This document shows positions 14,339-46,928 of a stretch of DNA of 47,085 nucleotides, in pieces. The notes under the pieces are model-generated. The model ran no database searches. It was not told the origin of the DNA and worked only from the letters and a program-made list of their open reading frames with translations. Where the stretch lies: contig NGBS01000027.1 of the NCBI GenBank assembly GCA_002245135.1, positions 62,001 to 109,085 on the forward strand, in the 5' to 3' direction. The translations under genes and the position numbers were made by a program. This stretch comes from Proteromonas lacertae. Its lineage: Eukaryota. Each line of letters opens with the position of its first letter. Within the stretch, counting starts at the first letter, position 1.

Positions 14339-14439
14339 ATATTTCCTATTTTTATTCAACACTTGAAAAAAAACAAATTATTATTATTATGAATATACAA
14401 AACAAAAATAGATTGTTATTATTATTCTTGATTTGGATT

Positions 14440-15133: not shown

Positions 15134-15195
15134 TGAATAAAACAGAGAAAAAGAAAAGTGTAACGACTATCTTTTTGAAAATTATAAAACCTTAA

Positions 15196-20520: not shown

Positions 20521-20588
20521 TTTCTAAACGAATATATTGTCAAAATAGATTGTAATAATCATCATTTTCTCATTATATATAGATAGAA

Positions 20589-21721: not shown

Positions 21722-21810
21722 TATTCTTTTGTTTTTGTATTATTTCATAAAAACACATAAATATGATGATGATAATGAGAATATAAGAATATAAAATGTT
21801 AGAATGAGTT

Positions 21811-24767
21811 TTATGAGAAATACATTGATTTTCTGATTCTTGGATTAACTACTATTGAAGTATCTGTTGTTTCTACATTGTTTACTTTCACTGTTGATAA
21901 TAATCTATATCTGTAAGCACATAAATCAGCATATTTCACACAGGGAGGAATAGATATACATTTTGTACATCGATTAAACAAATAACATTCCCAATAGATT
22001 AATAAACTCAACTCATTCTCATTCCAATGTTTATCTTCATATAAAACAGTGTAACAAGCTGGATGTACTGTTCCTTGGAAACTGTTTTGACTTGATAAGT
22101 AGAATTGAAATCGATTCTTATCAATTATTGTATTATCTATCACTGTTCCACTTATTATATTGTGGTTTTTATCAATTGTTGATTGAACATCACTAAAGAA
22201 TCTAGTGTGATGACGTTTATTTACTATCAAATAAGTCAATTCTATTCTTTTGTCTTTTCCAAAGATTTCTTCCATCGCTCTTTTTGTACTTGGAATTTCA
22301 GTTTCTGTTAATGTTATATTCTGAGATTCACTTACTCCATCTCTTTCAAATATTATTCTTTCAGGTAATATTCCTCTGTTATTCTTTAAATAATCAGTAA
22401 ATAATACTTTTAACATATCTTCCAATTCACTGATTATCTCATTTCCACTATCTTGATATCTCACTTCACTTACATATTTAACACCATCTTCATCCATTGA
22501 ACAAACTACACAAGCGATGGATTTCATTTCACTCTTTTGTTTTGGATGACAAACATCACCACCAACAAGCATTGTTCTTTTTTCTCTCTATTATTAATAT
22601 ATTAATATATATATATACTATTGGATTCTTGATAGTTCCTGGAGATTTTGTACAGTAATTCATACCTCCACATTTAAGATTTAACTTGATTATTATATTC
22701 GCTAAATATTGAATACCACCTTTCAAAGCTTTCGAAGGTATTAATACTTGACTTAATACTCCATGTATAACATCACAACTCATCTTTATTATCTTATATA
22801 ACTCCATATCTTCATTTGGAATAAACACTATTATCAATTCAGGATTGTCTTTCTTCATTTCTTTATCAATACTTCTGCATATATTATTCATATCTCTTAT
22901 ATCAACATTTATCACTCTCATATCATTTGGTAACGACATATTCATTTTTCTACCTGTATTTATCAAATCAGACATTATTTTACCAATTCTATTAGAATTT
23001 CTATAATCACAATTGAATATTTTCCAAGATTTCTATCATCATAATAATCATCATATAATATTATATACTATTGTTGTTCCTTTATATAATTTCACATCTT
23101 TCAGATTATAACTTCCATTATTTGGTTTAATATCAGTATTATTGAAATGAATGGATGGAGATGGAAGATGATGAGCTTCACACTATTAATAACATATATA
23201 AACAATATAGATTTATACTTTTATCATTTCTCTTTCTATTCTTGTTGATAAATCATTGTTTATTGCATTATATATTCCAACATTATTATTACTGATATTT
23301 TCGATCTTTCTTCTTAATATATCAGGTTTAAATGCACTGGCTTTTATCATCTCAGCTTGTTCATAAGGTGTTAACTTCTTGGTATATCTTTGATTACTTT
23401 CAATCTTACATACTTCCATTGGCATACTACAATTATTCTGTAAGATTAATAATGGAAGATTTGGATATGATAATCTAATATTATAAGTATTATTAAAATA
23501 GTCATTCACATTTATCATATTTCCATCAATTGCAAATCTGTTTAACATATAATAATAATTATTATTATATATATACTGTGTAGTAATTGCATTTAAATTG
23601 GAGATATTCTTGATTTTATACTTTCGACAAAATCCTTGATGATTACATTCAATTGTTGTTTCTTTCAATACTTTTAATAAATCTTTCAATTCATTATTGT
23701 TTAATCCTCTTCCAAATCCTCTTAAATCATCAATATTCACAACTTTCTTAAATATTTCTAATACACTACAATCATCAATAAACACACTACATGTTGGACA
23801 TATATTCAATGTTAAACCAATATCACTAATATGTAATCCCATATTAAATCCACCTGTACATATTGATAAACCTTTTCCTATACTCTTCATATTCATTCTA
23901 TTCATATCATAAAATCCATTTCCTATATCTAAATATCTACTTTTCTCATAATCTCGTAAGATATTGGATAATACACTCATCTCCAATTCAGGGATTCCAT
24001 TCATTCTTACACCATATTCATTTATCATATTCAAATCTATCACTTGATTTGTATCACTTAATTTCACATTAAACTATTCGATTGTGATTATTTCCTTCAA
24101 TTAAGGTTATTCGCTTATTCTCTAATGATGTTTCATTTAATCTTACATTACTGTATAACATCTTATCTCCATTATAATACAGCTTTAAACCATTTCCTAT
24201 ATTCATTTCTTTTTCAATTTCACTTTTACATACACTCCAAATATTCATCTTTAATATCTTTGGGAAATGCTCTTCATCTCTTTCATCACTCATCTTTACA
24301 TCATAACTGTAAATTACAACATCACTTTTTCTGATATTCACTTTAAATCGGTTACTTATCACTTCAAATTTTTGACCTAAACTGATATGATTAACAAACT
24401 TTGGAAAAGGACTTTCGATCATACGACCAATTGCTGATACACTGCCACTAACACTGACACTACTACTACTACTAATCGGTAAAACATTAGTTTTACTTTC
24501 AATTTCAGATGATTTTGTTTCATTACACAATCTTGTGCTTGAAGGAAGTCCAACAGCAACATTTCTTTCTACACCATTAACAGGAGCTGGAGGTGGTTGT
24601 GGAACTGACGTAGAACTTACACTGGCTGATTCAAAAATCACTTCTCGACCTTCAGCAATACATTCATTACATCTACACTCGTTCTTCTTCTTAAGCTGCT
24701 TTTTACTAAAGCACTTACTGGCTAATGTTCTTCCACAAGCTTTACAAAAATGATTTTCTGAATTCAT
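21811..24767 (-). CDS. AGO: Argonaute (N-L1-PAZ-L2-MID-PIWI) with N-terminal Stc1-like Zn finger; +1 T frameshift near 24070
   Basis: PAZ (YFNNTYNIRLSYPNLP...PMEVC), MID (YKIIK...GVLSQ...NIIIKLNLKCGG), PIWI (GGDVCHP, FERDGVSESQ, KRHHTRFF, GTVID, FYLSSQ, GT, YADL); 4 introns. Confidence 0.95.
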
Positions 24768-24928
24768 AATTCTTTAGCAGATTAAGTGTCACACATCTAC
24801 ATTCTAGGATTTCTACATTTCTATTGTCATTCACTGTGAAATTCCATTTTTTGTTAATGAAACCCATATAATTTTGAAATTAAATTATTTTTTGAATAAA
24901 TTATCATAAATCAATAAATCAATTAACT

Positions 24929-25999
24929 ATGATAAAATTAAAAAGTCTATTACAATCTTTTCCTCCTTTGTCATCATTATCATCATCGAAATCAGTAAAA
25001 TTGAAAAGCAAGAGTATTTTAGGAAGTGTGTTTGGTTCAATGGTAGGAGATGCATTTGGATCATATTGGGAATTGAAAACTCCTCCAATGAATGAAGAAG
25101 AAATGAAGTTAGCTTGTGAATTTCCCAAAGGTAGTGTTAGTGGTAGAGGTGCCGGTCAAATAACTGATGATAGTGAGATGATGATGTGCATATTATATAA
25201 TTTATATAAGAATGAAAGAAATGTTTATCCTTTACATGAAATATGTAAAAGTTATAATGAATGGTATAAAAGTAATCCTCCTGATTTAGGAATAACAACG
25301 AAGAATAGTTTAAGTGAATTTGATGAAATGGAATTTAGAGATGATAATGAAATAATGGAGATAATAAATAATCGAGATATAAAGAAGAATAAAAGTAAAT
25401 CAAATGGTTGTTTAATGAGATGTAATATAATAGGAGTTTGGTATTATAATGAAAGTAAAGAAATAATCGATAAATATAGTCGATTAGACAGTGGAATAAC
25501 TCACAATAATGAAATATGTAAAGAAGTTTGTAGTGTATATAATATATGTATAAGTGAAATAATTAAGAGTAGTGAAAATGATAATGATGATGAAAGAATA
25601 AATATAATATTGAATGAATTAAAAGATTATTGTAAATTACATGATTATGATATATGTTTAGAATGGATATTAGAAGGAATGGAAGAAGAATTAAAAATAA
25701 ATGTGAATGAACATAATGGTTATATAAAATATGGGTTTGTATTGAGTATTTACTGTTTAAATCATAAATTTGATTATGAGAAAAGTATGAAATTTGTATT
25801 AAAACTAGGTGGAGATAGTGATACAAATTGTTGTATAGTAGGTGGAATAATAGGTTGTTATAATAAGTTAGATAATATTCCTTTATATTGGATAGAGAAA
25901 GTATTAAATTCTCCTTATGATGATAGTTATTTAAATGGAGGAGAAAAATACTATCCAAGTGAAGTATTGAAATATTTATCGAAGTTGGAAATAGTTTAA
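24929..25999 (+). CDS. ADP-ribosylglycohydrolase (ARH/DraG family), intronless
   Basis: GSMVGDAFG, GQITDDSEM, SNGCLMR, ITH, GGDSDTN metal-binding motifs; 356 aa. Confidence 0.93.
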   Translation: MIKLKSLLQSFPPLSSLSSSKSVKLKSKSILGSVFGSMVGDAFGSYWELKTPPMNEEEMKLACEFPKGSVSGRGAGQITDDSEMMMCILYNLYKNERNVYPLHEICKSYNEWYKSNPPDLGITTKNSLSEFDEMEFRDDNEIMEIINNRDIKKNKSKSNGCLMRCNIIGVWYYNESKEIIDKYSRLDSGITHNNEICKEVCSVYNICISEIIKSSENDNDDERINIILNELKDYCKLHDYDICLEWILEGMEEELKINVNEHNGYIKYGFVLSIYCLNHKFDYEKSMKFVLKLGGDSDTNCCIVGGIIGCYNKLDNIPLYWIEKVLNSPYDDSYLNGGEKYYPSEVLKYLSKLEIV

Positions 26000-26084
26000 T
26001 TAAAAAACTATGTTTGTATTTAGTTGTTTTTTAATACTTGATATAACTTTTATGATAAAATAATATAATTTTATATTTGAATAG

Positions 26085-26386
26085 ATATTGTAATGAGTGA
26101 GAATGTGTTAAATGTGATTATAGAAAGATTAAATCATTATAAACCATTAGAAAATATGAATATATCAGGAAATGAATTAAATGAAAGAGAATTGAGGTTA
26201 ATGAAAGAAAATAAAGAAGTATTTGATTGTTTAGATGAATTATCAATAACAGTGAAAGAGAATATAGATAAATCAAAATTGAAATCATTTTTAGAAACAT
26301 TTACATCAATTGGAATAATGAAAATAGATGGAATTGGAGAAGATGAGAAGAAAGATATATCAAAATATTATTTGAATATTAAGTAA
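26085..26386 (+). pseudogene. Orphan paralog of the last exon of the pseudokinase-LRR gene
   Basis: Translation aligns end to end with 18313-18606 (shared ELSIT.KE..DKS.LKSFLETF.SIGI.K.DGI...NIK*); retains an acceptor AG at 26083-26084 but no upstream LRR exons. Confidence 0.75.
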
Positions 26387-26441
26387 TTGAATTAATAAAT
26401 GTTTTTGTTGGGTAGAAATGATAATAATATTAAAAAATAAA

Positions 26442-26795
26442 GATTTAGATTTGTTAGTTGCTTATCATGAAAAGAAAGAACTACCTCCTGAAATTGAAGG
26501 ATGTAAATTAGTTGAATCGTGTGATGATAATATGTTAGGTTCAATTGAGTAAATTTGAAAAAAATATAAAAAGTGATATTTTTAATATTAAAATGTTGTA
26601 TTATGATGATGATAATTTTGAGTAATAAAAAGTGGTAATTTATAAGAAAAGAATGATGAATAAAAAGAAAAAAATCTCTTCCGGACGGGATTGAACCGTC
26701 GACCTTACGGTTAACAGCCGTACGCTCTAACCAGCTGAGCTACGGAAGATTTGAATTTTATTTTCAATATACATTTATAAACTTTATTTTTCTTT
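26442..26795. repeat. Left arm of nested ~354-bp inverted repeat (inverted copy of LSH 3' end, downstream flank and tRNA-Asn)
   Basis: Reverse complement of 27006-27359 with only a few substitutions. Confidence 0.93.
26676..26749 (-). tRNA. tRNA-Asn (GTT)
   Basis: Exact reverse complement of 27052-27125; full cloverleaf. Confidence 0.97.
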
Positions 26796-27005
26796 TTATA
26801 AATGAGATTAATATATTCATAATAATAGTACATCAACTTGTTTACGATTATCATTAACCCAATATTTGAAGAAAATAAAGAATTAATGGCTATTGAAGAT
26901 AAAGATAAGGTATCTTGCTAAGAATTCATTTTGAAATTTTGTTGTGTTGTTATAAATAACTTAATATAAATGATATAGTGGTTTCTTCATCTTAAATAAA
27001 GAAAT

Positions 27006-27359
27006 AAAGAAAAATAAAGTTTATAAAAGCATATTGAAAATAAAATTCAAATCTTCCGTAGCTCAGCTGGTTAGAGCGTACGGCTGTTAACCGTAAGGTC
27101 GACGGTTCAATCCCGTCCGGAAGAGATTTTTTTCTTTTTATTCATCATTCTTTTCTTATAAATCACCACTTTTTATTATTTAAAATTATCATCATCATAA
27201 TACAACATTTTAATATTAAAAATATCACTTTTTATATTTTTTTCAAATTTACTCAATTGAACCTAACATATTATCATCACATGATTCAACTAATTTACAT
27301 CCTTCAATTTCAGGAGGTAGTTCTTTCTTTTCGTGATAAGCAACTAACAAATCTAAATC
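27006..27359. repeat. Right arm of nested inverted repeat
   Basis: Pairs with 26442-26795 across a ~210-bp spacer. Confidence 0.93.
27052..27125 (+). tRNA. tRNA-Asn (GTT)
   Basis: Acceptor TCTTCCG/CGGAAGA, D arm GCTC/GAGC, anticodon stem TACGG/CCGTA with loop CTGTTAA, T arm GACGG-TTCAATC-CCGTC; T-run (Pol III terminator) follows. Confidence 0.97.
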
Positions 27360-29302
27360 ACTATCACTAATCTCCTTTGGATCTTCTACATTCTCTACTT
27401 CATTATTTAAACTAGGTATAATCAATGATATTAAAGTATTCTTCTTCTTTTCTGTATTAGATTTACCAATAATAATCTGCTGCCAAATCCTTTTTCTTTT
27501 GCGCAACATTATACATCCTAGTATCAATTGAATTCCTAGTTAATAATCTATATATAACCACAGGTTTAGTTTGACCATATCGATGACATCGATCTATTGC
27601 TTGAATATCTTCTTGAGGATTCCAATCATTATCATAAATAATAACGGTGTCAGCACTTGATAGATTAATGCCAATACCACCAGCTCTTGTACTTACTAAG
27701 AAGATAAAACAATCATTATTATTGTTATAACTATCTATTATTGACTGTCTAGTGGATGCAGTAACAGAACCATCTAATCTTACATAACTATATCCTTTAT
27801 AATTCAACAAATCTTCAATACAATCTAATACTCTTGTCATTTGAGAGAATATCAACACTTTATGATTATATTTCCTTAATAATAATAATAATTTGTTTAA
27901 TAATATGAATTTACCACAATCGTTGATTAGATTATCATCTGTTTTGTTTTGATTATTAGTTTCTCGTTCATGTATAAGATATGGATGGTTTATACACTTT
28001 CTTAAATCCATTACCAAGTTTCTCAATATATTTGAGTTAATTTGTAATTTCTGTTGTTGGATTAATGTAATAAAATTATCTTTTTCATATAACATCTTAA
28101 TTAAATCATTTTGATAAGGAGAAGTATTACAATATAACAAATACTCTCTTTTCGTTGGTAATGGAGTGTTTATATCTGATTTTATTCTTCTAAGGAAAAA
28201 TGGACCAATTACCTTACGTAATTTATCAATCATTTGCTGTTTGATCATATCATTTTCACCTTCATATCTACTGAAATCAAAACTATATAATATTATATAT
28301 ATATATAATATTATTATTATTACAATACCTTTCCAAAAATAGATTAACATCTCTGAATATTTCAGGTAATAGAAAGTGTAATAATGACCACAATTCCGTC
28401 AAATTATTCTGTAACGGTGTTCCTGTTAATAATAATCTATTCGTTACACTTAAATCAGTATTACAATATTCACACAATGTAAAAAGACACTGGTGAAGTT
28501 GAGAATTGGAATTTTTAATTCTATGAGCTTCATCTACTACTACATAGATGAAATTTAATACACTCAATTTCCTATAACAATTAATAAATATTTATACTTT
28601 GAATATTGTTTGAGAGTTTCATAAGATGTTAATACAACAGGAAAATTCTTTGTTTTATAAGTTTTTAGTTTTTTATATAATTCTTTCTTATAGTTAATAT
28701 CACCATAAAATTTCACTGTTGGAAGTGCTGGAGCCCATTTTGCAAACTCATTTAACCAATTATCTAATGTTGATACTGGTACAACTATTAATACTGGTCC
28801 CCAAACTTGTACTTCTCTTAAATGTGCTAAAAATCCAATTACTTGTATTGTTTTACCTAATCCCATCTCATCTGCTAATAATCCATTTGATCCACTTTCA
28901 TATAATCTGTTTAACCAATTTATACCTTTTAACTGATGTGGATAAAGACTATAAAATGTATATATGAGGGAAAAAAAGAAATATACATTCCTCCTGTTAA
29001 CAAAGAAGGTTGTCTATCTATAATTGTAGATTCATCTGACACTAAAATATTCTCTATTGCTTCAGAATATGTTAATGCTGCTGTTACTAATTGATTGGCA
29101 ACTTCATTTGTCTGACTGGTTGTATTATTCTGTGCCTTAGAAGTAAATTCCGCTTTATCAATATCATCAACTGAATCAACAACACTAGTTGGACTTAAAT
29201 GAACTACTTTTCTTGTTTTACTAGGTTTAATCTCTTCATCCTATTATAATAAAAATAACATAATACTGTGCGTCTTTTTATTTTCACTACAAATTGATCC
29301 AT
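27249..29302 (-). CDS. HELLS: SNF2-family chromatin remodeler, LSH/HELLS/DDM1/Irc5 type (apparent +1 G frameshift near 27483)
   Basis: [102 protein letters not shown]; tail IIIGK...ISDSDLDLL; no HAND-SANT-SLIDE, chromo or bromo domain. SNF2 family certain, subfamily by recall. Confidence 0.82.
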
Positions 29303-29744: not shown

Positions 29745-29969
29745 TATAGAATAGAATTAATGTTAATAATTAGAACAAAAAAGAAAAAATAAAATAAACC
29801 AATTATATCAAACTTTCAGCTTGAAAATCTATAATGAATAATAATAAAAAAATATCGCATGATATGATTTTTTACACAAAATAATATATTATATAGAAAT
29901 GTTAGATTGTAGCATCTTTTCCTAGAGGAAATACATATTTATGAAACAAAATGTAAAACATTTATATTT

Positions 29970-30269
29970 ATTCAATATTAAAATAATCTTTTGATAATAT
30001 CTTTCTTCTCATCTTCTCCAATTCCATCTATTTTCATTATTCCAATTGATGTAAATGTTTCTAAAAATGATTTCAATTCTGATTTATCTATATTCTCTTT
30101 CACTGTTATTAATAATTCATCTAAACAATCAAATACTTCTTATTTCTTTCATTAACCTCAATTCTCTTTCATTTAATTCATTTCCTGATATATTCATATT
30201 TTCTAATGGTTTATAATGATTTAATCTTTCTATAATCACATTTAACACATTCACATTCATTACCAATAT
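29970..30269 (-). pseudogene. Second, frameshifted copy of the orphan LRR last exon
   Basis: Mirror of 26085-26386 with several indels; no ORF called. Confidence 0.7.
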
Positions 30270-30354
30270 CTATTCAAATATAAAATTATATTATTTTATC
30301 ATAAAAGTTATATCAAGTATTAAAAAACAACTAAATACAAACATAATTTTTTAA

Positions 30355-31425
30355 TTAAACTATTTCCAACTTCGATAAATATTTCAATACTTCACTTGGA
30401 TAGTATTTTTCTCCTCCATTTAAATAACTATCATCATAAGGAGAATTTAATACTTTCTCTATCCAATATAAAGGAATATTATCTAACTTATTATAACAAC
30501 CTATTATTCCACCTACTATACAACAATTTGTATCACTATCTCCACCTAGTTTTAATACAAATTTCATACTTTTCTCATAATCAAATTTATGATTTAAACA
30601 GTAAATACTCAATACAAACCCATATTTTATATAACCATTATGTTCATTCACATTTATTTTTAATTCTTCTTCCATTCCTTCTAATATCCATTCTAAACAT
30701 ATATCATAATCATGTAATTTACAATAATCTTTTAATTCATTCAATATTATATTTATTCTTTCATCATCATTATCATTTTCACTACTCTTAATTATTTCAC
30801 TTATACATATATTATATACACTACAAACTTCTTTACATATTTCATTATTGTGAGTTATTCCACTGTCTAATCGACTATATTTATCGATTATTTCTTTACT
30901 TTCATTATAATACCAAACTCCTATTATATTACATCTCATTAAACAACCATTTGATTTACTTTTATTCTTCTTTATATCTCGATTATTTATTATCTCCATT
31001 ATTTCATTATCATCTCTAAATTCCATTTCATCAAATTCACTTAAACTATTCTTCGTTGTTATTCCTAAATCAGGAGGATTACTTTTATACCATTCATTAT
31101 AACTTTTACATATTTCATGTAAAGGATAAACATTTCTTTCATTCTTATATAAATTATATAATATGCACATCATCATCTCACTATCATCAGTTATTTGACC
31201 GGCACCTCTACCACTAACACTACCTTTGGGAAATTCACAAGCTAACTTCATTTCTTCTTCATTCATTGGAGGAGTTTTCAATTCCCAATATGATCCAAAT
31301 GCATCTCCTACCATTGAACCAAACACACTTCCTAAAATACTCTTGCTTTTCAATTTTACTGATTTCGATGATGATAATGATGACAAAGGAGGAAAAGATT
31401 GTAATAGATTTTTTAATTTTATCAT
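30355..31425 (-). CDS. ADP-ribosylglycohydrolase, copy 2
   Basis: 356 aa, differs from copy 1 only at residue 6 (S/N) by visual comparison. Confidence 0.93.
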   Translation of the reverse strand: MIKLKNLLQSFPPLSSLSSSKSVKLKSKSILGSVFGSMVGDAFGSYWELKTPPMNEEEMKLACEFPKGSVSGRGAGQITDDSEMMMCILYNLYKNERNVYPLHEICKSYNEWYKSNPPDLGITTKNSLSEFDEMEFRDDNEIMEIINNRDIKKNKSKSNGCLMRCNIIGVWYYNESKEIIDKYSRLDSGITHNNEICKEVCSVYNICISEIIKSSENDNDDERINIILNELKDYCKLHDYDICLEWILEGMEEELKINVNEHNGYIKYGFVLSIYCLNHKFDYEKSMKFVLKLGGDSDTNCCIVGGIIGCYNKLDNIPLYWIEKVLNSPYDDSYLNGGEKYYPSEVLKYLSKLEIV

Positions 31426-31575
31426 AGTTAATTGATTTATTGATTTATGATAATTTATTCAAAAAATAATTTAATTTCAAAATTATATGGGTTTCATTAA
31501 CAAAAAATGGAATTTCACAGTGAATGACAATAGAAATGTAGAAATCCTGTGTGACACTTAATCTGCTAAAGAATT

Positions 31576-34526
31576 ATGAATTCAGAAAATCATTTTTGTA
31601 AAGCTTGTGGAAGAATATTAGCCAGTAAGTGCTTTAGTAAAAAGCAGCTTAAGAAGAAGAACGAGTGTAGATGTAATGAATGTATTGCTGAAGGTCGAGA
31701 AGTGATTTTTGAATCAGCCAGTGTAAGTTCTACGTCAGTTCCACAACCACCTCCAGCTCCTGTTAATGGTGTAGAAAGAAATGTTGCTGTTGGACTTCCT
31801 TCAAGCACAAGATTGTGTAATGAAACAAAATCATCTGAAATTGAAAGTAAAACTAATGTTTTACCGAGTAGTAGTGTTAGTGGCAGTGTTAGTGGCAGTG
31901 TATCAGCAATTGGTCGTATGATCGAAAGTCCTTTTCCAAAGTTTGTTAATCATATCAGTTTAGGTCAAAAATTTGAAGTGATAAGTAACCGATTTAAAGT
32001 GAATATCAGAAAAAGTGATGTTGTAATTTACAGTTATGATGTAAAGATGAGTGATGAAAGAGATGAAGAGCATTTCCCAAAGACATTAAAGATGAATATT
32101 TGGAGTGTATGTAAAAGTGAAATTGAAAGAGAAATGAATATAGGAAATGGTTTAAAGCTGTATTATAATGGAGATAAGATGTTATACAGTAATGTAAGAT
32201 TAAATGAAACATCATTAGAGAATAGGCGAATAACCTTAATTGAAGGAAATAATCACAATCGAATAGTTAATGTGAAATTAAGTGATACAAATCAAGTGAT
32301 AGATTTGAATATGATAAATGAATATGGTGTAAGAATGAATGGAATCCCTGAATTGGAGATGAGTGTATTATCCAATATCTTACGAGATTATGAGAAAAGT
32401 AGATATTTAGATATAGGAAATGGATTTTATGATATGAATAGAATGAATATGAAGAGTATAGGAAAAGGTTTATCAATATGTACAGGTGGATTTAATATGG
32501 GATTACATATTAGTGATATTGGTTTAACATTGAATATATGTCCAACATGTAGTGTGTTTATTGATGATTGTAGTGTATTAGAAATATTTAAGAAAGTTGT
32601 GAATATTGATGATTTAAGAGGATTTGGAAGAGGATTAAACAATAATGAATTGAAAGATTTATTAAAAATATTGAAAGGAACAACAATTGAATGTAATCAT
32701 CAAGGATTTTGTCGAAAGTATAAAATCAAGAATATCTCCAATTTAAATGCAATTACTACACAGTATATATATAATAATAATTATTATTATATGTTAAACA
32801 GATTTGCAATTGATGGAAATATGATAAATGTGAATGACTATTTTAATAATACTTATAATATTAGATTATCATATCCAAATCTTCCATTATTAATCTTACA
32901 GAATAATTGTAGTATGCCAATGGAAGTATGTAAGATTGAAAGTAATCAAAGATATACCAAGAAGTTAACACCTTATGAACAAGCTGAGATGATAAAAGCC
33001 AGTGCATTTAAACCTGATATATTAAGAAGAAAGATCGAAAATATCAGTAATAATAATGTTGGAATATATAATGCAATAAACAATGATTTATCAACAAGAA
33101 TAGAAAGAGAAATGATAAAAGTATAAATCTATATTGTTTATATATGTTATTAATAGTGTGAAGCTCATCATCTTCCATCTCCATCCATTCATTTCAATAA
33201 TACTGATATTAAACCAAATAATGGAAGTTATAATCTGAAAGATGTGAAATTATATAAAGGAATAACAATAGTATATAATATTATATGATGATTATTATGA
33301 TGATAGAAATCTTGGAAAATATTCAATTGTGATTATAGAAATTCTAATAGAATTGGTAAAATAATGTCTGATTTGATAAATACAGGTAGAAAAATGAATA
33401 TGTCGTTACCAAATGATATGAGAGTGATAAATGTTGATATAAGAGATATGAATAATATATGCAGAAGTATTGATAAAGAAATGAAGAAAGACAATCCTGA
33501 ATTGATAATAGTGTTTATTCCAAATGAAGATATGGAGTTGTATAAGATAATAAAGATGAGTTGTGATGTTATACATGGAGTATTAAGTCAAGTATTAATA
33601 CCTTCGAAAGCTTTGAAAGGTGGTATTCAATATTTAGCGAATATAATAATCAAGTTAAATCTTAAATGTGGAGGTATGAATTACTGTACAAAATCTCCAG
33701 GAACTATTAAGAATCCAATAGTATATATATATATTAATATATTAATAATAGAGAGAAAAAGAACAATGCTTGTTGGTGGTGATGTTTGTCATCCAAAACA
33801 AAAGAGTGAAATGAAATCCATCGCTTGTGTAGTTTGTTCAATGGATGAAGATGGTGTTAAATATGTAAGTGAAGTGAGATATCAAGATAGTGGAAATGAG
33901 ATAATCAGTGAATTGGAAGATATGTTAAAAGTATTATTTACTGATTATTTAAAGAATAACAGAGGAATATTACCTGAAAGAATAATATTTGAAAGAGATG
34001 GAGTAAGTGAATCTCAGAATATAACATTAACAGAAACTGAAATTCCAAGTACAAAAGAGCGATGGAAGAAATCTTTGGAAAAGACAAAAGAATAGAATTG
34101 ACTTATTTGATAGTAAATAAACGTCATCACACTAGATTCTTTAGTGATGTTCAATCAACAATTGATAAAAACCACAATATAATAAGTGGAACAGTGATAG
34201 ATAATACAATAATTGATAAGAATCGATTTCAATTCTACTTATCAAGTCAAAACAGTTTCCAAGGAACAGTACATCCAGCTTGTTACACTGTTTTATATGA
34301 AGATAAACATTGGAATGAGAATGAGTTGAGTTTATTAATCTATTGGGAATGTTATTTGTTTAATCGATGTACAAAATGTATATCTATTCCTCCCTGTGTG
34401 AAATATGCTGATTTATGTGCTTACAGATATAGATTATTATCAACAGTGAAAGTAAACAATGTAGAAACAACAGATACTTCAATAGTAGTTAATCCAAGAA
34501 TCAGAAAATCAATGTATTTCTCATAA
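31576..34526 (+). CDS. AGO: Argonaute with Stc1-like Zn finger, copy 2 (~935 aa; -1 A frameshift near 34053)
   Basis: Introns 32763-32801, 33121-33156, 33271-33306, 33721-33751/33753; same domain motifs as copy 1. Confidence 0.95.
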
Positions 34527-34615
34527 AACTCATTCTAACATTTTATATTCTTATATTCTCATTATCATCATCATATTTATGTGTTTTTATGAAATAATAC
34601 AAAAACAAAAGAATA

Positions 34616-35749
34616 TTATACACAATATATTAGTGATTTATCATTTTCAAACATGATCAAATGAAGATTATTATCTTCAACTTCTTCTTCTTTCTTAATA
34701 TATTGACAATTTAATCCTTTTAAACAAATATCATTATTCAATCCATATAATGACAATAAATAATATGATAAATGTTTGGAGTTTATAATCTTATTCAATA
34801 TACTCATTAAACATTCAATAAATACATACGAAAATACTCCTTTACATTTCATATGTATTGCATCATCACAATTAGATATATATCCATCTAAGGGATTAAA
34901 AGAAGAAATATAACTATCTTTCTCATTTCCATACAATATATCATCTATATTACATTCAATCATCCCAATATAATCAAGGAGATTGTTTATATTACATATT
35001 TCACTTTCTTGTACTTTCATTGAGTTATTATTATTTAATTCGAATTTTACACTTTCATAATTCGGTATTTCGATTGAATTATATTCTGTTATTGAAAATG
35101 TATTGTAGATTTGTTTGGGTTGGTAATCTGGTGGTATATTCATTGATAAACATTTACCATTTTCTGAGTTTGTATATGACATTATTACTGTTATTTTATT
35201 CATCTATTCATTATTATATTATTATCATATACTCGATCATCAGATAAACTACTTATTAATTTTTCATAAAAGGAATTGTTTAAATGTTTTAAATTGATGA
35301 TTATTACATAATAATTATTGTTTATTTTCTTTCCATCTAATCCAATTGTTTGATAAGAATCTTTGTCTATATACAAATACAGTATTCCATTCACTACATA
35401 AACTGAATTACATGGAGGAGTTGGAGTGTTTATGGAGTATAAAACAAAACAATTGCATGACTTTATATATTCTTCGATAAATTCTTTCTATATACAATTC
35501 ATATACACATTAATATACATTTACAATATAACAGAATGGAACTGTCGCTTTATAGTAGAAAAGTTCTTCAACTAATTCTTTTATATTACACACATCTTCA
35601 ATCAATCCTCGAGGTATAAATACTCCTATCTGAGTGGTTATTTCATGTTTTCTTAACATTTTCTTTGTTTTTACTGACTTTGATAATGAATTTGTTTCTA
35701 AAACAGAATATGATCCACATTTATATTTCTTTGATATTATTTTATTCAT
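34616..35749 (-). CDS. RPP40: RPP40-like, copy 2
   Basis: Mirror of 20589-21721; last exon open. Confidence 0.65.
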
Positions 35750-35817
35750 TTCTATCTATATATAATGAGAAAATGATGATTATTACAATCTATTTTGACA
35801 ATATATTCGTTTAGAAA

Positions 35818-37489
35818 ATGATATTTTTGTTTTTTTGTTTTTTTTATCTATCTGCACTTCTGCTTAAGTGAATCAACACTAAAAATATGGCCCTATCCTA
35901 ATAAATATAGTCGTGGAAATACCGATTTATTTGTTAGAGGTTTTTCTTTTGAATTTAAAAGTGAAATATCCTGTAAAGATTTAGAAGATTCTTTCTCAAG
36001 ATACAAGGCAATAATATTTGGAGAACATGAAGAAGAAGGTGATATTAGTTCTTCTTTTTTAAGTTCTGTTATAGTGAGAGTTGATGATTGTAATGCTGAT
36101 TTACAAGTATTTCAATATTTTGATATGAAAATAATAATAATAATAGATGGGAGTAGATGAGAGTTATTCTTTAAATATCACAGTTTCTCCTCCAAGTGCA
36201 ATAATAGAAGCTTCTACAGTGTATGGTGCATATTATGGATTAGAGACCTTTTCTCAGTTAGTGACATATAACTCAACAAGAAAACAATATATAATTCATG
36301 ACTCACCTTGGATAATCTCTGATAAACCATATTTTGCAGTATTAATTATATAATAAATGTGTATAATAGTATCGAGGAGTATTAATAGATTCAGTTCGTC
36401 ACTTTTTACCCAAAAGAATCTTAAAGAAAGTAATAGACAGTTTAAGTTATGCGAAATTCAATACATTACATTGGCATTTAAGTGATAATCAAGCATTTGT
36501 AGCTGAGATAAAATCTTTACCGAAGTTTTGGGATTCTAGTTATGATAATGCATCAAGATATACACAAGTATAAATAAATAAATAAATTTGTTTTTATTTA
36601 TTTAGAAAGAAATGAAAGATATAATAGAATATGCTCGAAAGAGAGGTATAAGAATAATTCCTGAAATTGATATTCCTGGCCATATGATGTCATGGTGTAA
36701 AGAATGTATAAATTATTAATTATTATATAAATAGATCCTGAAGTATGTCCAAGTGAAACATGTTTAGAACCATTAGATCCAAGTAGTAATTACACAATGC
36801 CTTTATTAAAACAATTATTTGGTGAAATATCTTCATTATTTCCTGATAATTATATTCATTTAGGTGGTGATGAAGTATCAATGAAGTGTTGGAATGAAAC
36901 TCCTCGTATAAAAGAGTGGATGAATAAACATGGATATGATGTAACTGATACTTATAAATATATGGTTGATAATAGTCATAAAATAATATTAAGTAATAAT
37001 AAAAAGACAATGAATTGGGAAGAAGTAGTAACTCATATTCCAAAAGGAATAAATAATACTGAATCAATAATTCAAATCTGGTTAGGTGGAACAAGTACAA
37101 TGTCAATAATCAATCGTGGATTTAATGTGATAATATCAAAGAAATGGTATTTAGATGATTTGAATAACAACTGGGAAGTATTTTATAATAATGATCCATT
37201 AAATGGAATTGATGATAAAGAAAAAGAAAAGAAAGTATTAGGAGGTGAAGCTTGTATGTGGGGTGAAACAGTAGATAGTTCTGTAATATTTAATACAATT
37301 TGGCCAAGAGCAGCAAGTGTAAGTGAAAGATTATGGAGTAATCCAGAGAATTTGAATGTAGAAAAAGCGAAAGATCGATTATTATGGTTTCGATGTTTAT
37401 TGAATGAAAGAGGAATAGAAGCTGCTCCAGTTTTGAATGAAGTTGGCAGAAGTGCTCCAAGTGAAGCTGGTGGATGTTTATGTCAATAA
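35818..37489 (+). CDS. GH20 beta-hexosaminidase, copy 2 (extra T in the signal-peptide T-run)
   Basis: Mirror of 18850-20520 with HLGGDEV. Confidence 0.92.
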
Positions 37490-37732
37490 ATATATTTTAT
37501 ATTAATTGTTTCTTTTCATCTACAGAGATCATTCAGTAAATACGTTTGTATATATACTTCCAACTTGACCAACAGATTAACCACACACAATAATAAGATA
37601 TAACATTGAATTATTCTATTCAAACTGAATATAAGTGTGAAAATTATAAAATACAACAAAATACACACTCCTCAAACCATAAAAGCTTGACATTATTTTT
37701 TCAAAATTTACATTATTAACTCAGAATTTCAG

Positions 37733-39659
37733 TTATTTAATGTTGAAGAATTCTTTACTTAATTCTTTCTTTTCTTCTTCTGAAATTCCATCTATTTTTA
37801 TTATTCCAATTGATGAAAATGTTTCTAAAAATGATTTTAATTCTGATTTATCTACATCTTCTTTCAATGTTATTGATAATTCTTGCAAATCTTGAAAATA
37901 CTTTTGATTTTCATTAAATAATTTCAATCCTTTTTCATTTAATTCATTTGCTGAAAGATTTATCTGTTTTAATAGTTCATAATCTCTTAATCTTTCTATC
38001 AGCATCTTTAATCCGTTTTCACTCATTCCAATATCTATTCATATCATAAAAGATGCAATATTAATAATATACTTGAAATATCAAATACAAAATCATTACA
38101 ACCATAACCTTCTTCTATAAATATTTCTAAATTACTACATATTATCTCTACTCCTTCATCTCCAATTGGATTATTGTTAATTGAAATATATTGTTTTGGA
38201 TGCTTTAATGAGGAATCCATCAATTCTTTTAATCCTTTAGAACTAGTTCTATTATTAGATAAATCAAGTGTTAAATAATCAATCTTCTTAATTAATCTAA
38301 TGTGATAATCGTTAATATTCATATCTATTTCATTATAACATATATTCTATACTTGAAAAATCATATTCTTTATCAAAATAATGTCTCTTCTTTTTGGCAC
38401 AATACTTCAAATAATATTCCAATTCTTCATTTGTCCATAATGAATATCTCATTTCGATAAAAGGATATTCTTCATCTTCTATTGATTTAGAACAAATTGA
38501 TTTTAATCCTTTCATACTAATATTATTCCCTTTTAGATTAATACAGTAGCATTCTTCTGATAAATCTATTTCATCTATTAACAACATCACACATTCATCA
38601 TCTATTAATATATTACTCAAATTAAGATTATATATATCATCACGATCTTTTGCTACCATCATTAAATTCTCAATTAATAATTTAAATCCAACATTTCCAA
38701 TTGGATTATCTATTATATATAATACTCAAATATATACTGTGAATAATCAAGTTTTCTATATTTTCATTTTCCATCATATAATTCATCAAATGCTTTATTC
38801 CTTCTGAATTTATATTATTATCGCTTATATCAAGTTTATACATATTCTCCTTCCCATCATCATCATCACCTTCTTCTTCTTCTTCCTCCTCCTCCTCTTC
38901 TTCTTCTTCCCCATTTTCTTCTTCTTCATCATCTTCTACTTTACTATTATTATTTTTTAAACCTCCCAACAAATATTCTAACCCCTTTGAAGATAATCCC
39001 ATTTCTATTCAAAACTTAATAAATAATAATAGTTATACTTGAGCAGTTAATAATATCATCATGATATTTATCTTTCAATAAATGTATATGTGGAGATAAT
39101 AATTTCATTCCTGCATCTCCTATTTCATTTCCACATAGATAAAGGTATTTAAGACTGGGAAATGAAGATAAGTTGTTAATCAGTGTTTTTATACTTTTAT
39201 ATGATAATTTATTATCTATAGAAAATATAATAATAACATCAAATTATACTTCTTAAATCCAGCTCTACTGTTTCTTTTAATTCATTTGATCTTAAAGAAA
39301 TGAAAGAATTAAAAACATTATCATTAATGTCTAAGTTACTAAGATTTAATGAGTTTAAATTATTGAACAAAACTGGTATATTTTTATTAACAAGTAATTC
39401 TTTACATGGATTACAATATATATTTGTACATTTGGAGAATAATGTTTCTAATCCTTTTGAATGAATATTATTGTTGAATACAACATCTATTTTGCTAAGA
39501 TTTGGATATCTATATAACTCTTTTGATAATAACATCATTGATTCATCATTTAAATTCATTCCTCTAAGATTCAATTCATTCTTGAAGTTGATTAATAAAT
39601 GTAAATATGGAAGTAATAATTTGAAGCTTTTTGAACCAATTGGATTAACTATTTCATTA

Positions 39660-39705
<46 letters not shown>

Positions 39706-41214
39706 AATAATAAATACATGAGAGATCTAAACATTTCAATCTTGTCAATGGAATTGATTTAACAAATGTTTCAATAAAGTGATAGGTAATTTCACACCAT
39801 GATAAATCTAACTGATTTAGATTATATAATTGAGAAAAAAATGATCCAAAAAATGATTGACATGATAGTGGAATGTTAATCTCTATGTATTATATAATAA
39901 AAGTATTAAAAAAATACTAATTTTGATTTTTGTTGGATTTATTAGTTTTAATATTCTCAGTAAATAATATACCCCTTCTTCACAGAAACAAACACATCTT
40001 ACATTACTATAGATTGTTTCTTTGTCATAATAATCAGTATTAATATCAAATATCATATCATCTAAATAAGACTGTTTAACCACTTTACATTGGTGACGAT
40101 TTTGGAATTTCAGTTTATATTTTATTGTATTATCTTCTTTATATAATTTCATCATCAATAGTATAGCTAGTATTCTGTCACTATATTGATGATTAAATGA
40201 TTCTATCAATTTATCTCTAAGTTCTATTCTTTATATATAACATTTATACTTTCATATTTATTATATTGAAGATAATATTGTATTTGATATGAAATATTGG
40301 GGGATATTACTATTGCATTATCATTATTAAACAATAACTCTTTTCTTTCTTTACATATCATCATATTATTTTTATCATCTTTCAATATTTCACTCATTTT
40401 TATAGTTTCTTTTTTCAACTCTTTCAAACTCAATCTATCTTCACTTTTCACTTTTAACAACTTACTGACCAACTCATTCATCATATCATCACATTCTACA
40501 TCTAAACTGTATTTACATCTCATGACATTATTAACTGTTCTTTTGATATCATTATCTTCATTGAATGGTAATTTCTTACAAATCATTTCATATAATATAC
40601 AGCCAATTGACCAAATCACACTTCCCTCATTACATTCATATCCATTCAACTCTTCTGGGCTTTTGAAACAAATATCATACAATCTCATATCTTCATATTT
40701 TCTCAATTCATTCAACAATAAATCACATAACTTCATTTCTCCATTTTCTTCACATATTATGTTACTACTCTTCAAATTCCTTAATACTAAACAATAATCA
40801 TTCAATATCATCAAAATATTACATAATAACACAATCATTTTACATATATCATCACTTGAAAAAGATTTACTTTGAGTGATCTGTTCTAAGTCTCTCGAGT
40901 AATATCCTCTTGTTATTAACATATAATCACCTTCAATACTCGAGTGAATCACACGAGAAGGATAAATGAAGGATAAACAACCTTCTATCAGTAATGAGTT
41001 ATTCTCTAAGTATTTTGATATTCTTTTTTCTTCATTTCTTTGAACATTTACTACTTTCATCATTTTTATCTCATTTTGATGTTGTAACACCAAATCTATT
41101 TCATTAACATCTTTTCTACTTTCTCTTTTATCTATAAATAATATTATGCTAACATACATGAGTATTAAATGGTAATAACCAGGATAATACATCATCTGCA
41201 AAAGATTTCTTCAT
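37733..41214 (-). CDS. Pseudokinase-LRR, copy 2 (frameshift near 41110; two LRR exons strongly diverged)
   Basis: Mirror of 15196-18606. Confidence 0.78.
39665..39702. repeat. Intronic (TA)n microsatellite, expanded relative to the left-arm copy near 16701-16714
   Basis: Direct reading; another (TA)n lies at ~3968-3991. Confidence 0.85.
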
Positions 41215-41276
41215 TTAAGATTTTATAATTTTCAAAAAGATAGTCGTTACACTTTTCTTTTTCTCTGTTTTATTCA

Positions 41277-41970
41277 ATGGTGCTTGTATAAATTAATATT
41301 TTATACAATTCAATAGACTCTTTATACATATGCGAATAATAATAAAACAGCTAAAGCAATTATAACATCGCAATACTGCAATATAAAACTAAATATTCCT
41401 CCATTTAAAATGGGTGAAGATAATAAGACTGAAGACTATTTAAAAAAGAATCCAAATGGTGGTGTACCAACTCTAGAGACTAGTAAAGGGTGTGTTTATG
41501 GTAGTAATTCAATAGCTAAATATATAGCTAGAATGCGTCGTGATGTAGGATTATGTGGTGAAACATTTTATGATGAGGGATTGGTTGATGAATGGTGTGA
41601 ATGGTCAAATACTTTACTTGAACCTGCAGCTGATGCTTGGTATTTACCATTAGTAGGATGTGCTAAATATAATAAAGAAAAAGAAGATGAGGCCAAACAG
41701 AAAATGGAAGTATTGTTAAAAATATTAGATGATCATTTAATGGATAAAGAGTATGTTGTAGGTAATAGAATCACATTAGCTGATATTGTATTGATGTGTA
41801 CAGTTGTTTACCATTTTCAGTATTTATTCGATGAAGATTATAGAAAGAAATTCCCAAGTTTAACAAAGTGGTTTGTGAGTTTATCAAATGAAGAAGAGTT
41901 TATAAATGTATTAGGAAAAATAGATCTATGTTCAAAACCTATTGTGTATGAAAGCCCAGAGAAAAAATAA
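41277..41970 (+). CDS. EF1Bgamma-type GST, copy 2
   Basis: Mirror of 14440-15133. Confidence 0.85.
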
Positions 41971-42071
41971 AATCCAAATCAAGAATAATAATAACAATCT
42001 ATTTTTGTTTTGTATATTCATAATAATAATAATTTGTTTTTTTTCAAGTGTTGAATAAAAATAGGAAATAT

Positions 42072-43162
42072 CTATTCTTTATGAACAACAAGTACTTTGT
42101 GATGAAGAGCACTTCTTAAAATAAATAATCCAATTGCCCAGAACAAATAAAATGCAGCTGCTGTTATTACTTTCATAACAGATAATTCATGAGCTGCATA
42201 TCTATACAAATCATATCTCCATGAGAATTTATGACTAACATCAATCAGATTTTCTACTTTAATATTAATAAAAGATATATATACTTCTATATTGGAATAT
42301 ATCAATCATTATATCACCAGATATATTCATAAAGTAACTATAAGGAATAGTTCCAATTAACACACCAATGAAGTAAACAAAAACCAGGTAAATCATAATA
42401 CAATGGTAATAAATTGACAATATAAGTGGGAATAAATGGAATCTATAATAAATAAAGTGAATATAATAATAATTATATACATTTCTTAATAAAGCTACAT
42501 TAACCATATAATATAATGGAGATTGATGTTTTCCACCTAATAAACTTGTAGCAAACTCTAATCCTTTTCTCCAAGTTGGTGTTAATTCATTAAATGTTAA
42601 TGCTCTTGATTCAAGGAAATAACAACCAGTAGCACCAATCGAAATACCAATTGTACAGATTAATGAACCTAAAATTGGACCATAAATAATTCCAGCAGCA
42701 AAATATAATAATTGACCACCTGGAATGCAAAACATATTGAAGAATGAAATAACTCCAATATATCTAATAATAATAATAATAATAAATGTATATACATAAT
42801 ATATGAAATCCAATAATTGTTGTTAATCCATCCAATGACATTGCTTTTTTCTTTAACGAACCAATCTACAGATACGAAGTGAGAAAGTGCTGTGTAACGA
42901 TATATTATTGGAACAAGGACTAGAAATGAGTCTCTTCATAATTTACATATTAATCCAATAACTGCTAATCTTCTAGTTATTGAGCCAGGGAAGAACTTTA
43001 AATTCTCTGAAAGTGAAACAAAAATATCAAACTTTTATGATGTTTTCTGTAATACATATCTTGTGAATTTTCTTCAACAACTACTTCCTTTTCTTTAGGT
43101 TGATGAGGATCTAAAAGAATAACACTTCAATCTATACGAAATCTGTTTATCAAAAATTGCAT
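42072..43162 (-). CDS. VTT/DedA membrane protein, copy 2
   Basis: Mirror of 13249-14338. Confidence 0.8.
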
Positions 43163-43266
43163 TGTGGAATGAAAAAAAAGTGATTTTATGTCGTGTTTAT
43201 AATACAGTGTATTTATTAAAAATACAGTCAAGAATGTATTAATATTTTTGTGATTTTTACCTCCAA

Positions 43267-43711
43267 ATGGAAGAAGTATAGAATAATTAGATAATTTTAT
43301 AGGATTTCAAACATTCCTTGTATGTTTCAATTAGTGAGTTATGTTTAAATACTGGTATAACAGTTTATTGGTTATAAAACTAATTAGAGAAAGATAGTGG
43401 TATTAAGATTAACGATAAAGTATTTCTGTTCATTTTAAACATATATGTGACATAGTGTTATGGAGTTTTGACAGAACTTTTAGTTGAATATGTTGGTATC
43501 TTTAGTTTATCATTTCAACATAGAGACATTTGCATCAGATTTAGAGGCATTTGCACATCATGCGAAGAGAAATAAAATAGGGACTGAAGATGTACTGTTA
43601 TGTGCTAGAAAAGACCCAGAACTTGTATTAATATAAATTTAATTTGTACATTAGAAAGCTAGATTAACTGAGATAGCAGAATGCCAAAAACAGTCAAAAT
43701 CAGCCACATAA
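43267..43711 (+). CDS. CENPS: CENP-S / MHF1, copy 2
   Basis: Same 6-exon structure, frame intact. Confidence 0.9.
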
Positions 43712-43915
43712 TTCAGAATATATTGAAATTTATTCATATAAATAAACTATAAAAGTGGTGTATTATATTCATCTTATAAATTAACACTAAAATTAAGCAT
43801 TATGTATATCTTGATGTTTTATTAGTTTTATCATATGTGCATACGTGTATTAAGGTATTACTAATAATTATAACAAAACTTAAATAATACATACAGTTAC
43901 AACCTTATTACACGA

Positions 43916-46802
43916 ATGACAAACCAATTGAATAATAATATATCCGTTTCATATAAAATGAAAAGTTTATCTTGGAATGAGATGTCTTTGCTAACTATTG
44001 TCCGATCCAAGTCAGCAAAGCATTTTCTATTTAGAGTATCTGCGAGACTTTGTAAAGCAGGAACATTATTACCAACTAGATTTTGAGTATATAATGACTG
44101 TCATTGTCTAGATATCTACTGTCATGGCTGAAAGAAATTTATGCAAAGCTTAAAATGAACCATGTATTAACAGAAACAGAATTCCAAGGGTTGTTTATCG
44201 ACTTAATAGTGTTATGTACAGACATATTAAAGTTCCAGGTATTTTTAATTTTGTTATTGTAATAGACTGATCTTGAAAAAGGGCTTTTTGTCGAAAGAAT
44301 TTGATCTATATTCTTTTATATGAAGTATTTTTTGGATAAAATATCCAAAGATCTTGCTTTTTTCGATGATTACAACATTATTACCTCTCATATATGTGAT
44401 TTAATGAAAGAGAATAAATTATTCTCAAATTTACTCACTTCTAACCCAGCTTATACAAATAAAGCAAATTTGTTATATTATTTCTACTTACCCTACCAAT
44501 ATATAATAAGATTAGCACGATATTTCCGAATAATATTGCTGAACACAAATCGATCATCAATGTTACATTCCGAACTATTACAACTTTTTGATAATTCATT
44601 ATATATATGTAAACAGATAAAAGGAAGCATAGAACAATCTGGAAATAGAACAATGTTAATATCAATAGAAGAAAGATTGAAAGGAAAATATCCAATTGTT
44701 GAACTACATAGAATTTATGTATATATTTATATTATTATTATTATTAATAGATATATGAAAAAGCAGTAAAGATAATCAATAAAGAAGAAATGTCTCGTTA
44801 TTTATATTTATTTTCAGATTTAATTGTCGTTTGTACACAATCATCTTCATTTGAATATGCAGTAAAATATGTTGGAGTATATTATTATTATTATTATTAT
44901 TATTATTTTAAAATATGCCTATATATATATAGTGTGAATCTATACCTGAAGCTCCTACTAGTTTATTGATATATGGTATTGAGCAATCGTTTATAATAAT
45001 ATTTCCATCTGTTGAAAGCAAATTGCAATGGAAAGAAGCAATATCTCAATCATTAACACATTCATATTCGAATGAAACATTACATCTTGATAAGATAACA
45101 CAGCACCACGTATATATATATTCTCTTTATCTTACTCTTTCACTTTTACTTATTCTCATTTTTTATTCTGTTTTTATAGTATTTGTAAATATTGATTCAG
45201 CAAAACAATGCAATCTATGCAAAAACACCTTTGGATTACTACAAAGGAAATATCATTGTAATAAATGTGGTTTAATAGTCTGTCAACAATGTTTTATTAA
45301 GAAACCAGATAGGAATATGTAAAGACTGTAATGATAATCCAAATAAAGCAGCGAATAAAAGAAAGGCAAAAATTAAAAGATTCATTAGATAATAATGATG
45401 TAAGTACTGTTCCAAGACATTTATCAAGAAGAGCTTCGTCCTTATTCTACTGGATTGCAATCCTATTTATACCTATGAAAAGAAATACAGCAGTAGAAAG
45501 AGATTTTGTGAATAGATCTTTAAGAACAAAGGCTTTATACAAAGAAAACATACAAAATACACATAGTTAAGAGAATTATCAGAGTTAAGAATAGAAGATA
45601 TAAAAGTGATGTTAATAATGATGAAATTGATAAATATTACCTACAAAGACTACAAATAGAGAATTATAAAATCAGTAGTAAAAGAAACAGTAATGATTCA
45701 TTTCAAATCTGATAGAATATCTGATTTAATAGAACCTCGATCAAGATTTAGTAGTGTAAGTACCGCTTTAACTCCATTAATAGTTGAATGGTTTGATAAT
45801 CCTTTATTTGATCCTATGAGTGGTATGAAATGCAAAATATCCTATACATTTATGAAGGATAAAATATCTTCCAGTGATAATGGTAATAATATAAATGGTA
45901 ATACAATGAGTGGATCTTTATCACATATGTCATCTTACAGACAGAAACAACAATCACAACGTCAAAGAGCTATTACAGAAGCAAGTCCTTATAATTTAAC
46001 AGGTTCCAATAACTCAATCAATGTTATTAAGAAGAAGTACAACTCAAACCTTATCACAACAACAGTTATTACAAGTTTCAATGAAATCTTCATCATCTTC
46101 AACAACATCAAATACCTATGCCAATCCAAATACCACCAAGTACAACTGCTCCATTACCTCCTACTCTATCATCATCATCACCAGTGAGGAAGAGTAATTC
46201 CAATACTAGATTAAGATCAGGTTCAGGTTGCATTTCTCCCAAATTACTCAGTCCTTCCCATAGCAATAAAAATTGAATATTGTAGGGAAGAATAATCCTT
46301 GGGATTTCTTAGATGGTACATTAAATCCAGTGATTTCTAGTCCAATTCATACATCCAAATCACCACAACAAATTCCACAACCAATTCAACAACAACAACA
46401 ACAACAACAACAATCACCATTTCCACCTCCTCCATTTATGAGAAAGTCTTCTAATCTTAACAACAATGGTGTTAATAATAATAATAGTAGATTTAGATCA
46501 AGACAATAGCAATACAGCCAGATGAAGGTAAAGATATTTATGATGTTGGTTCATCTAGTGAATCTTATAAAGATATGTTTTTACCAAATAATCATAAAAA
46601 TGGAATGAGAGTAGAATCAAAGAGTGTTTCTTTAGGGAAATCGAATTTATTTGCTGGTTCAAGACCTAGTAGCAGCAGTATGCATCATTTACCACCTACT
46701 GTGCAGTTAGCTATGGCTAGTTATATGATTGATGCTAGTAGTTCTGATAAGCACAAGAAAGTTAGAAAGAGAGCTAGGAGTAGTAGAAAAACGTTTGGAT
46801 AG
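43916..46802 (+). pseudogene. FGD-like RhoGEF-PH-FYVE copy 2 with roughly a dozen small indels (pseudogene or unpolished sequence)
   Basis: Mirror of 9634-12504 broken into many ORF fragments, mostly at homopolymers. Confidence 0.6.
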
Positions 46803-46928
46803 GATGTATATATAATATATATATATAATTTATTTATGATTTGTTTAACATTTTGTTGGATTAAGTTAAAATAAAAAAATAATAATCATAGAGAGAAATA
46901 ATAATAATAATAAAGAGAATGAGAATTT

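Follow-up and report, generated by a model that had tools for sequence, protein, structure and literature searches.

An apparently undescribed Argonaute architecture with an N-terminal Stc1-like zinc finger

The N-terminal tails of eukaryotic Argonautes are usually unstructured. The described system closest to the locus reported here is Stc1 of S. pombe (2LUY; PF12898), a separate protein with two tandem zinc fingers. According to Bayne 2010 (PMC2875855), the substitutions K100A and R116A in Stc1 abolished its association with Ago1 but kept CLRC binding and tethered silencing. Clr4 is bound instead by the C-terminal tail of Stc1, which is very acidic (He 2013, cited through 10.1101/271270). 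GTSF1/Asterix offers a functional analogy only. In PMC9539491 it is a small zinc-finger protein that potentiates the PIWI slicer, but it is a separate protein that acts on the PIWI clade, and its CHHC fingers are, by the sources cited, unrelated to those of Stc1.

Here, we describe a stretch of DNA of 47,085 nucleotides (hereafter the window, meaning this whole stretch) in which an Argonaute gene opens with a finger resembling those of Stc1. The likeness to Stc1 lies in the C4 finger itself, its F/Y-S-K-x-Q core, a predicted fold like that of Stc1 finger 2, and the link to Argonaute. Unlike Stc1, however, the window has one finger rather than two tandem fingers, built covalently into the Argonaute, and the fusion has no acidic Clr4-binding tail. 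The window has a GC content of 26%. This low value, the short introns of variable length, and the use of canonical stops agree with tortoise Blastocystis, for which PMC10690189 gives 21-23% GC.

Gene structure and the inverted duplication

Both Argonaute copies in the window carry the motif C-x2-C-x7-CFSKKQLKK-x5-C-x2-C at residues 8-36. A regular-expression search of all six frames of the window matched this motif in two places only, 31597-31683 on the plus strand and 24746-24660 on the minus strand, exactly where a sequence-only reading of this DNA had placed it. The features of the two copies are as follows:

31576..34526, plus strand: Argonaute gene copy A, five predicted exons; 936 aa if two 1-nt deletions are read errors
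21811..24767, minus strand: Argonaute gene copy B, in the second arm of the inverted duplication
31597..31683, plus strand: predicted C4 zinc finger of copy A, residues 8-36, resembling S. pombe Stc1 finger 2
24660..24746, minus strand: zinc finger of copy B, with a single I/T difference from copy A
31696..31926, plus strand: S/T/P/G-rich linker of copy A, residues 41-117
31969..32325, plus strand: Argonaute N domain (Pfam ArgoN) of copy A, residues 132-250, E 3.9e-8
32650..32988, plus strand: PAZ domain of copy A, residues 359-471, E 3.4e-16, spanning intron 1
33502..34433, plus strand: Pfam Piwi domain of copy A, catalytic tetrad motifs at 33775, 33892, 33994, and 34404
32763..32801, plus strand: predicted intron 1, 39 nt, in frame, with the same end point in the orthologue ORFs
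33121..33156, plus strand: predicted intron 2, 36 nt
33271..33306, plus strand: predicted intron 3, 36 nt
33721..33751, plus strand: predicted intron 4, 31 nt
33756, plus strand: 1-nt deletion in copy A relative to copy B, in an A run, frameshift near residue 680
34053, plus strand: second 1-nt deletion in copy A relative to copy B, in an A run, frameshift near residue 779
24073, minus strand: 1-nt insertion in copy B, frameshift after residue 232

The fusion of finger and Argonaute in one reading frame is real. The ATG at 31576 opens a frame of 516 codons that holds the finger, ArgoN, and PAZ together, with the proposed Ser/Pro linker between finger and Argonaute, and the Piwi matches follow in downstream frames (Pfam E 7e-39 and 3e-33). 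In-frame stops immediately precede this ATG, also the start chosen in the sequence-only reading, and no further Met occurs before residue 115. Two orthologues, P0001 (68% identical) and P0002 (63% identical), open their frames with the equivalent Met. Inspection of the frame gave no AT-rich GT..AG intron candidate between the finger and the N domain; on this ground, and from the start Met that the orthologues share, we rejected the alternatives that an intron is concealed ahead of the N domain or that the finger belongs to a gene of its own. A stop made by polyadenylation after the finger was likewise ruled out, as the 8-nt sequence that we take to be the Blastocystis polyadenylation end motif occurs three times in the window and nowhere in the gene.

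Four AT-rich introns of 31-39 nt are predicted in the gene. A fifth candidate, at 33931, was discarded because both the reading frame and the alignment to human AGO2 continue through it. The encoded domains stand in the usual order of N, PAZ, and PIWI, with MID assigned from its position. Judged by its closest relatives among solved structures, the protein belongs to the AGO clade. The protein shares its domain order with human AGO1-4 and Arabidopsis AGO10, and its tetrad motifs align with those of human AGO2. It differs from these AGO-clade proteins in having a predicted folded finger at the tip of its N-terminal tail and a catalytic tetrad of D-E-D-D, in which the fourth residue is Asp, not His. 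Slicing activity is predicted from these motifs.

The two Argonaute copies are the two arms of an inverted duplication of ~17 kb (window 9351-26405 vs 29955-47085; 97.2% over 9.8 kb and 98.7% over 7.4 kb). The finger is indeed carried by both copies, as had been read; however, being arms of one duplication, they constitute one observation, not two, and we therefore dropped them as independent evidence. This may be a true duplication or two haplotypes joined in assembly. It covers at least eight genes, and divergence between the arms is highest at ~38-39 kb, with 132 substitutions in 951 aligned bases. Between the arms, a protein kinase-like gene (40224-41195, minus strand; 15348-16187, plus strand) shows 13 replacement and 3 silent changes over 840 nt, the highest divergence among the genes compared. 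Just at the inner border of the duplication, inverted repeats of 359 nt (97%) flank a 210-nt spacer (window 26437-27364) and look like a foldback or MITE-type element.

Neither copy is the full Argonaute that had been claimed. Spliced copy A stops after residue 698, owing to the deletion at 33756, and spliced copy B stops after residue 232, owing to the insertion at 24073. Each frameshift site is intact in the other copy, such that the copies combined imply a protein of 936/937 aa. The three frameshift sites are slips in short base runs, and the arms differ by 61 one-base indels over 17 kb; read errors are therefore plausible. Alternatively, both copies could be decaying duplicates and the finger a relic without current function. 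Each copy does carry frameshifts of its own, all three frameshifting indels found among eight coding segments compared between the arms fall in the Argonaute (chance ~0.07), and the Argonaute copies differ by 9 replacement vs 2 silent changes. We nonetheless consider decay very improbable, given that the breaks are 1-nt slips of a kind frequent between the arms, each site being intact in the opposite arm, that the finger is better conserved than the linker across relatives, and that the Argonaute KAK8789888.1 of Blastocystis sp. Blastoise is intact. Decay of the window copies would, in addition, leave the fusion in relatives untouched.

Around the Argonaute, an ADP-ribosylglycohydrolase gene (30355-31425, minus strand) lies head-to-head with copy A, 150 nt apart, and an Rpp40-like gene (34616-35203, minus strand) lies tail-to-tail with it, 89 nt apart. 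The unique middle between the copies holds a SNF2 chromatin remodeller (27463-28866, minus strand), ~2.7 kb from copy A, whose top solved relatives are ISWI/SMARCA5, HELLS, CHD4, and DDM1. The window also encodes a chitin synthase (7385-8365, plus strand) and, in both arms, a GH20 hexosaminidase (18850-19542, minus strand; 36797-37489, plus strand). No RNAi factor was found among the gene neighbours within the window.

The finger and its closest folds

Across the four fingers compared, C8, C11, F20, S21, K22, Q24, C33, and C36 are invariant. The Cys motif as originally read holds for its outer pairs, but neither its middle Cys, C19, nor C31 is conserved; the zinc ligands are thus predicted, from conservation, to be C8, C11, C33, and C36. 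Pfam Stc1 (PF12898) was the sole family matching all four fingers, with scores of 12.9-20.4 bits on whole proteins and 17.4-18.1 bits on the window's excised finger, all below the gathering cut-off of 24.8. The match is a single stretch restricted to model positions 51/52-83 of 84, the second half of the model, in keeping with the caveat raised earlier that one C4 finger is present as opposed to two in Stc1. For the window's finger, FYVE ties with Stc1 in Pfam. A FYVE finger has eight zinc ligands holding two ions, whereas only four Cys are conserved here, and Foldseek superpositions onto FYVE domains gave an rmsd of 4.7-6.4 Å; a FYVE identity was ruled out.

Comparison with solved structures pointed to Stc1 as well. 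A profile built from the four finger sequences found 2LUY (S. pombe Stc1) as its best match in the PDB (E 6.1e-4; next match E 0.51), aligning best on finger 2, although a single-sequence search of the PDB with the finger did not reach 2LUY. An AF2 model of the finger gave a confident small fold (pLDDT 85), which also appeared within a model of the 516 residues; zinc binding is likewise a prediction. In line with the structural likeness proposed beforehand, 2LUY ranked first for the modelled fold both in Foldseek (TMq 0.71, 1.8 Å over 40 columns, E 0.098) and in VIA (residues 86-126, Z 3.6, 1.9 Å, 41 aligned). Hpy99I endonuclease, however, ties in VIA at Z 3.2, and the fold is therefore not exclusive to Stc1. 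The 'Stc1-like' label accordingly stands as the best match by profile and by fold, while the sub-threshold Pfam scores and the shared fold limit it: the finger resembles finger 2 of Stc1 but belongs to a wider family of fingers, and it is not an Stc1 protein.

The same comparisons bear on a different function, in which the finger would be an accessory domain that binds nucleic acid and keeps a target or precursor RNA (or DNA) close to the Argonaute, its Stc1 likeness reflecting a fold that is shared and widespread. The window's finger has a charge of +7, with 9 K/R vs 2 D/E in 29 residues. The fingers of phage HNH and endonuclease VII proteins and of Hpy99I, all on DNases, resemble this finger in their small C4 fold and in their spacing. 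PHROG endonuclease and HNH families match three of the four fingers (E 0.004-0.005), phage proteins reach TMq 0.6-0.73, and the top Atlas cluster for the finger is viral (all Atlas leads score 0.90 or below). The position equivalent to K100 of Stc1 has, moreover, lost its Lys in the window lineage. On the other hand, Stc1 came first in all three PDB comparisons, with the DNase fingers as weaker matches there, although a margin of less than 1 Z unit leaves them tied. The charge of the Blastoise finger is lower (+3), and the window's own finger had no PHROG match at E 0.1. Fusion to an Argonaute would also be easier to explain if the finger shared an Stc1-like affinity for Argonaute. We regard a nucleic-acid-binding role as rather unlikely, but as the main rival to the reading favoured below.

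Relatives and rarity of the fusion

In P0001 and P0002, the finger, linker, N domain, and start of PAZ lie in one frame that ends at intron 1. Identity to the window in P0001 / P0002 is 69% / 83% in the finger, 45% / 39% in the linker, and 64% / 57% in the N domain. The finger is thus better kept than the linker, which indicates that it is under constraint. P0002 belongs to a cluster of 24 members, and among the 15 of these that were listed, 14 carry the finger; in the same cluster, P0009 and P0013 have finger and Argonaute as separate ORFs, resembling one split gene.

A more distant relative is KAK8789888.1 (P0028) of Blastocystis sp. Blastoise. This Argonaute of 1143 aa is intact and has its finger at residues 6-32. 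It was deposited as hypothetical protein WA158_006668, and the finger does not appear in its precomputed Pfam list. Like the window protein, it consists of a finger, a long low-complexity linker, and a complete Argonaute, and the two are 33% identical over L1-PIWI; it differs in its tetrad, D-E-D-H, and in its linker, a 268-residue Pro/Gly/Lys repeat. Within that linker, an 11-residue Pro/Gly/Met/Lys unit recurs about nine times (P0028 residues ~55-150), and farther along there are two GW/WG dipeptides.

To place both proteins, we built trees on 682 columns with the finger excluded. The window and Blastoise Argonautes were sisters with FastTree (0.92, 78 rows), under LG+G4 (98/90, 36 rows), and under C20 (93, 26 rows), but the pair was lost under Dayhoff-6 recoding (29 rows). 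Both are long branches, and the composition of the window row is skewed. Among the other tree rows to which we gave names (20 looked up), none was a stramenopile, and the tree therefore cannot separate 'Blastocystis' from 'stramenopile'. The window and Blastoise fingers likely derive from one old fusion, and the host of the window is probably a low-GC stramenopile related to Blastocystis.

We surveyed Argonaute tails among the best 150 of 777 matches, of which 114 included the start of the N domain and 66 had a tail of at least 30 residues. Within this set of best matches, the finger was present in two of the 66 testable tails, those of P0001 and P0028, and absent from the other 64. The fusion is rare among the Argonautes examined. 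Two weak searches added no relative: one among proteins of 904-2580 aa found no homologue and missed even KAK8789888.1, and one with the finger only, among proteins of 628-2001 aa, had the query itself as its sole scored candidate. Locus scans of metagenome contigs and viral contigs confirmed no relative.

The architecture had also been thought new, and we found no Stc1-finger Argonaute in the literature searched, which covers few subscription papers. The InterPro table of the Blastocystis genome paper (PMC10690189) has no Stc1 row. A conserved Argonaute architecture with an N-terminal Stc1-like finger is thus apparently undescribed.

Possible roles of the fused finger

Residues 48-126 of the 516-residue AF2 model have pLDDT <50, and the linker is accordingly predicted to be disordered. 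Across the fingered Argonautes, linkers are 69-268 residues long and 4-14% D/E, that is, not acidic, and between close orthologues they are poorly conserved. At the position of Stc1 R116, all four fingers have R or K; at that of K100, one of the four has K, with Leu in the window lineage and Lys in the Blastoise finger.

These observations bear on the proposal, made in the sequence-only reading, that the fusion hard-wires an RNAi-to-chromatin adaptor, with the finger or linker recruiting an H3K9 methyltransferase complex for nuclear transcriptional silencing. Homology to Stc1 favours it, as do the Pre-SET proteins (2, 1, and 1) in the proteomes of the three tortoise isolates, the only ones of eight Blastocystis proteomes with this domain, the five human isolates having none (PMC10690189 supplementary file 7). 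The SNF2 remodeller near copy A fits too, although adjacency is weak evidence in a eukaryote. However, in PMC2875855 the Stc1 fingers were dispensable for CLRC recruitment, and the part that binds Clr4 is the acidic tail (10.1101/271270), whereas the linkers here are neither acidic nor well conserved. In addition, PMC10690189 lists an RdRP domain for none of the eight Blastocystis proteomes, unlike the S. pombe pathway. What the fusion retains is one finger of the part that binds Argonaute in Stc1, without the acidic Clr4-binding tail. This part alone cannot bring a methyltransferase, and a chromatin role therefore needs a recruiting surface not visible here. The proposal is not supported in its original form, and we think a chromatin adaptor distinctly unlikely.

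Alternatively, the finger could recruit some other protein partner, such as a minimal RNase III/Dicer, a decay factor, or a ubiquitin ligase, and make no contact with Argonaute. The modelled domain is small, stable, and exposed, and with its long tether it would suit partner capture. In PMC10690189 (supplementary file 7), a protein with an RNase III domain is listed for all eight Blastocystis proteomes, and Piwi and PAZ domains are listed for seven of the eight. Yet no result indicates such a partner, and the gene neighbours offer no RNAi candidate; we judge this role decidedly improbable.

The reading we favour, though tentatively and at somewhat less than even confidence, is that the finger is a permanently tethered cofactor that docks on the Argonaute itself and does not recruit chromatin enzymes. 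The fused finger would keep the Argonaute-binding role of Stc1 fingers: these are the Ago1-binding part of Stc1, and a fused copy would therefore reach the same kind of surface. On a tether of ~70-270 residues, it could reach its own Argonaute or a neighbouring one. Once docked, it might modulate the loading of guides or slicing, or mask the docking site of free adaptors, acting by analogy much as the separate GTSF1 boosts PIWI slicing (PMC9539491).

In favour of this tethered cofactor are the retention of the fusion in relatives, the first rank of Stc1 by profile and by fold, the pairing of window and Blastoise Argonautes in finger-free trees, the basic residue at the R116 position in every finger, and a non-acidic linker with predicted disorder. 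Against it are the loss of K100 in the window lineage, the sub-cut-off Pfam scores, the non-specific fold, and the +7 charge, together with the pair lost under Dayhoff-6, the frameshifts in both copies, and the split ORFs of P0009/P0013. A complex prediction for the Blastoise finger with its own Argonaute body and zinc, run without alignments, gave a score of 0.01 (mark 0.34) and no answer either way.

A bolder version, which we consider possible but unlikely, is that the Stc1-type finger is an old Argonaute-docking module that extends far beyond fungi and was fused in one protist lineage, yielding a self-capped or self-chaining enzyme. If this were true, the tethered finger would fill the site used by adaptors or join Argonautes that sit next to each other on a target, and the enzyme would be switched between slicing and adaptor-driven silencing.

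A predicted folded finger kept across Argonautes that are 33% identical amounts to a new architecture. As a gene-fusion clue, it would extend the link between Stc1 and Argonaute from fission yeast to stramenopiles. In the fusion, moreover, finger and Argonaute form a single-chain construct with which the site of an Stc1-type finger on an Argonaute could be mapped. It also gives access to RNA silencing in Blastocystis, a protist common in the gut.
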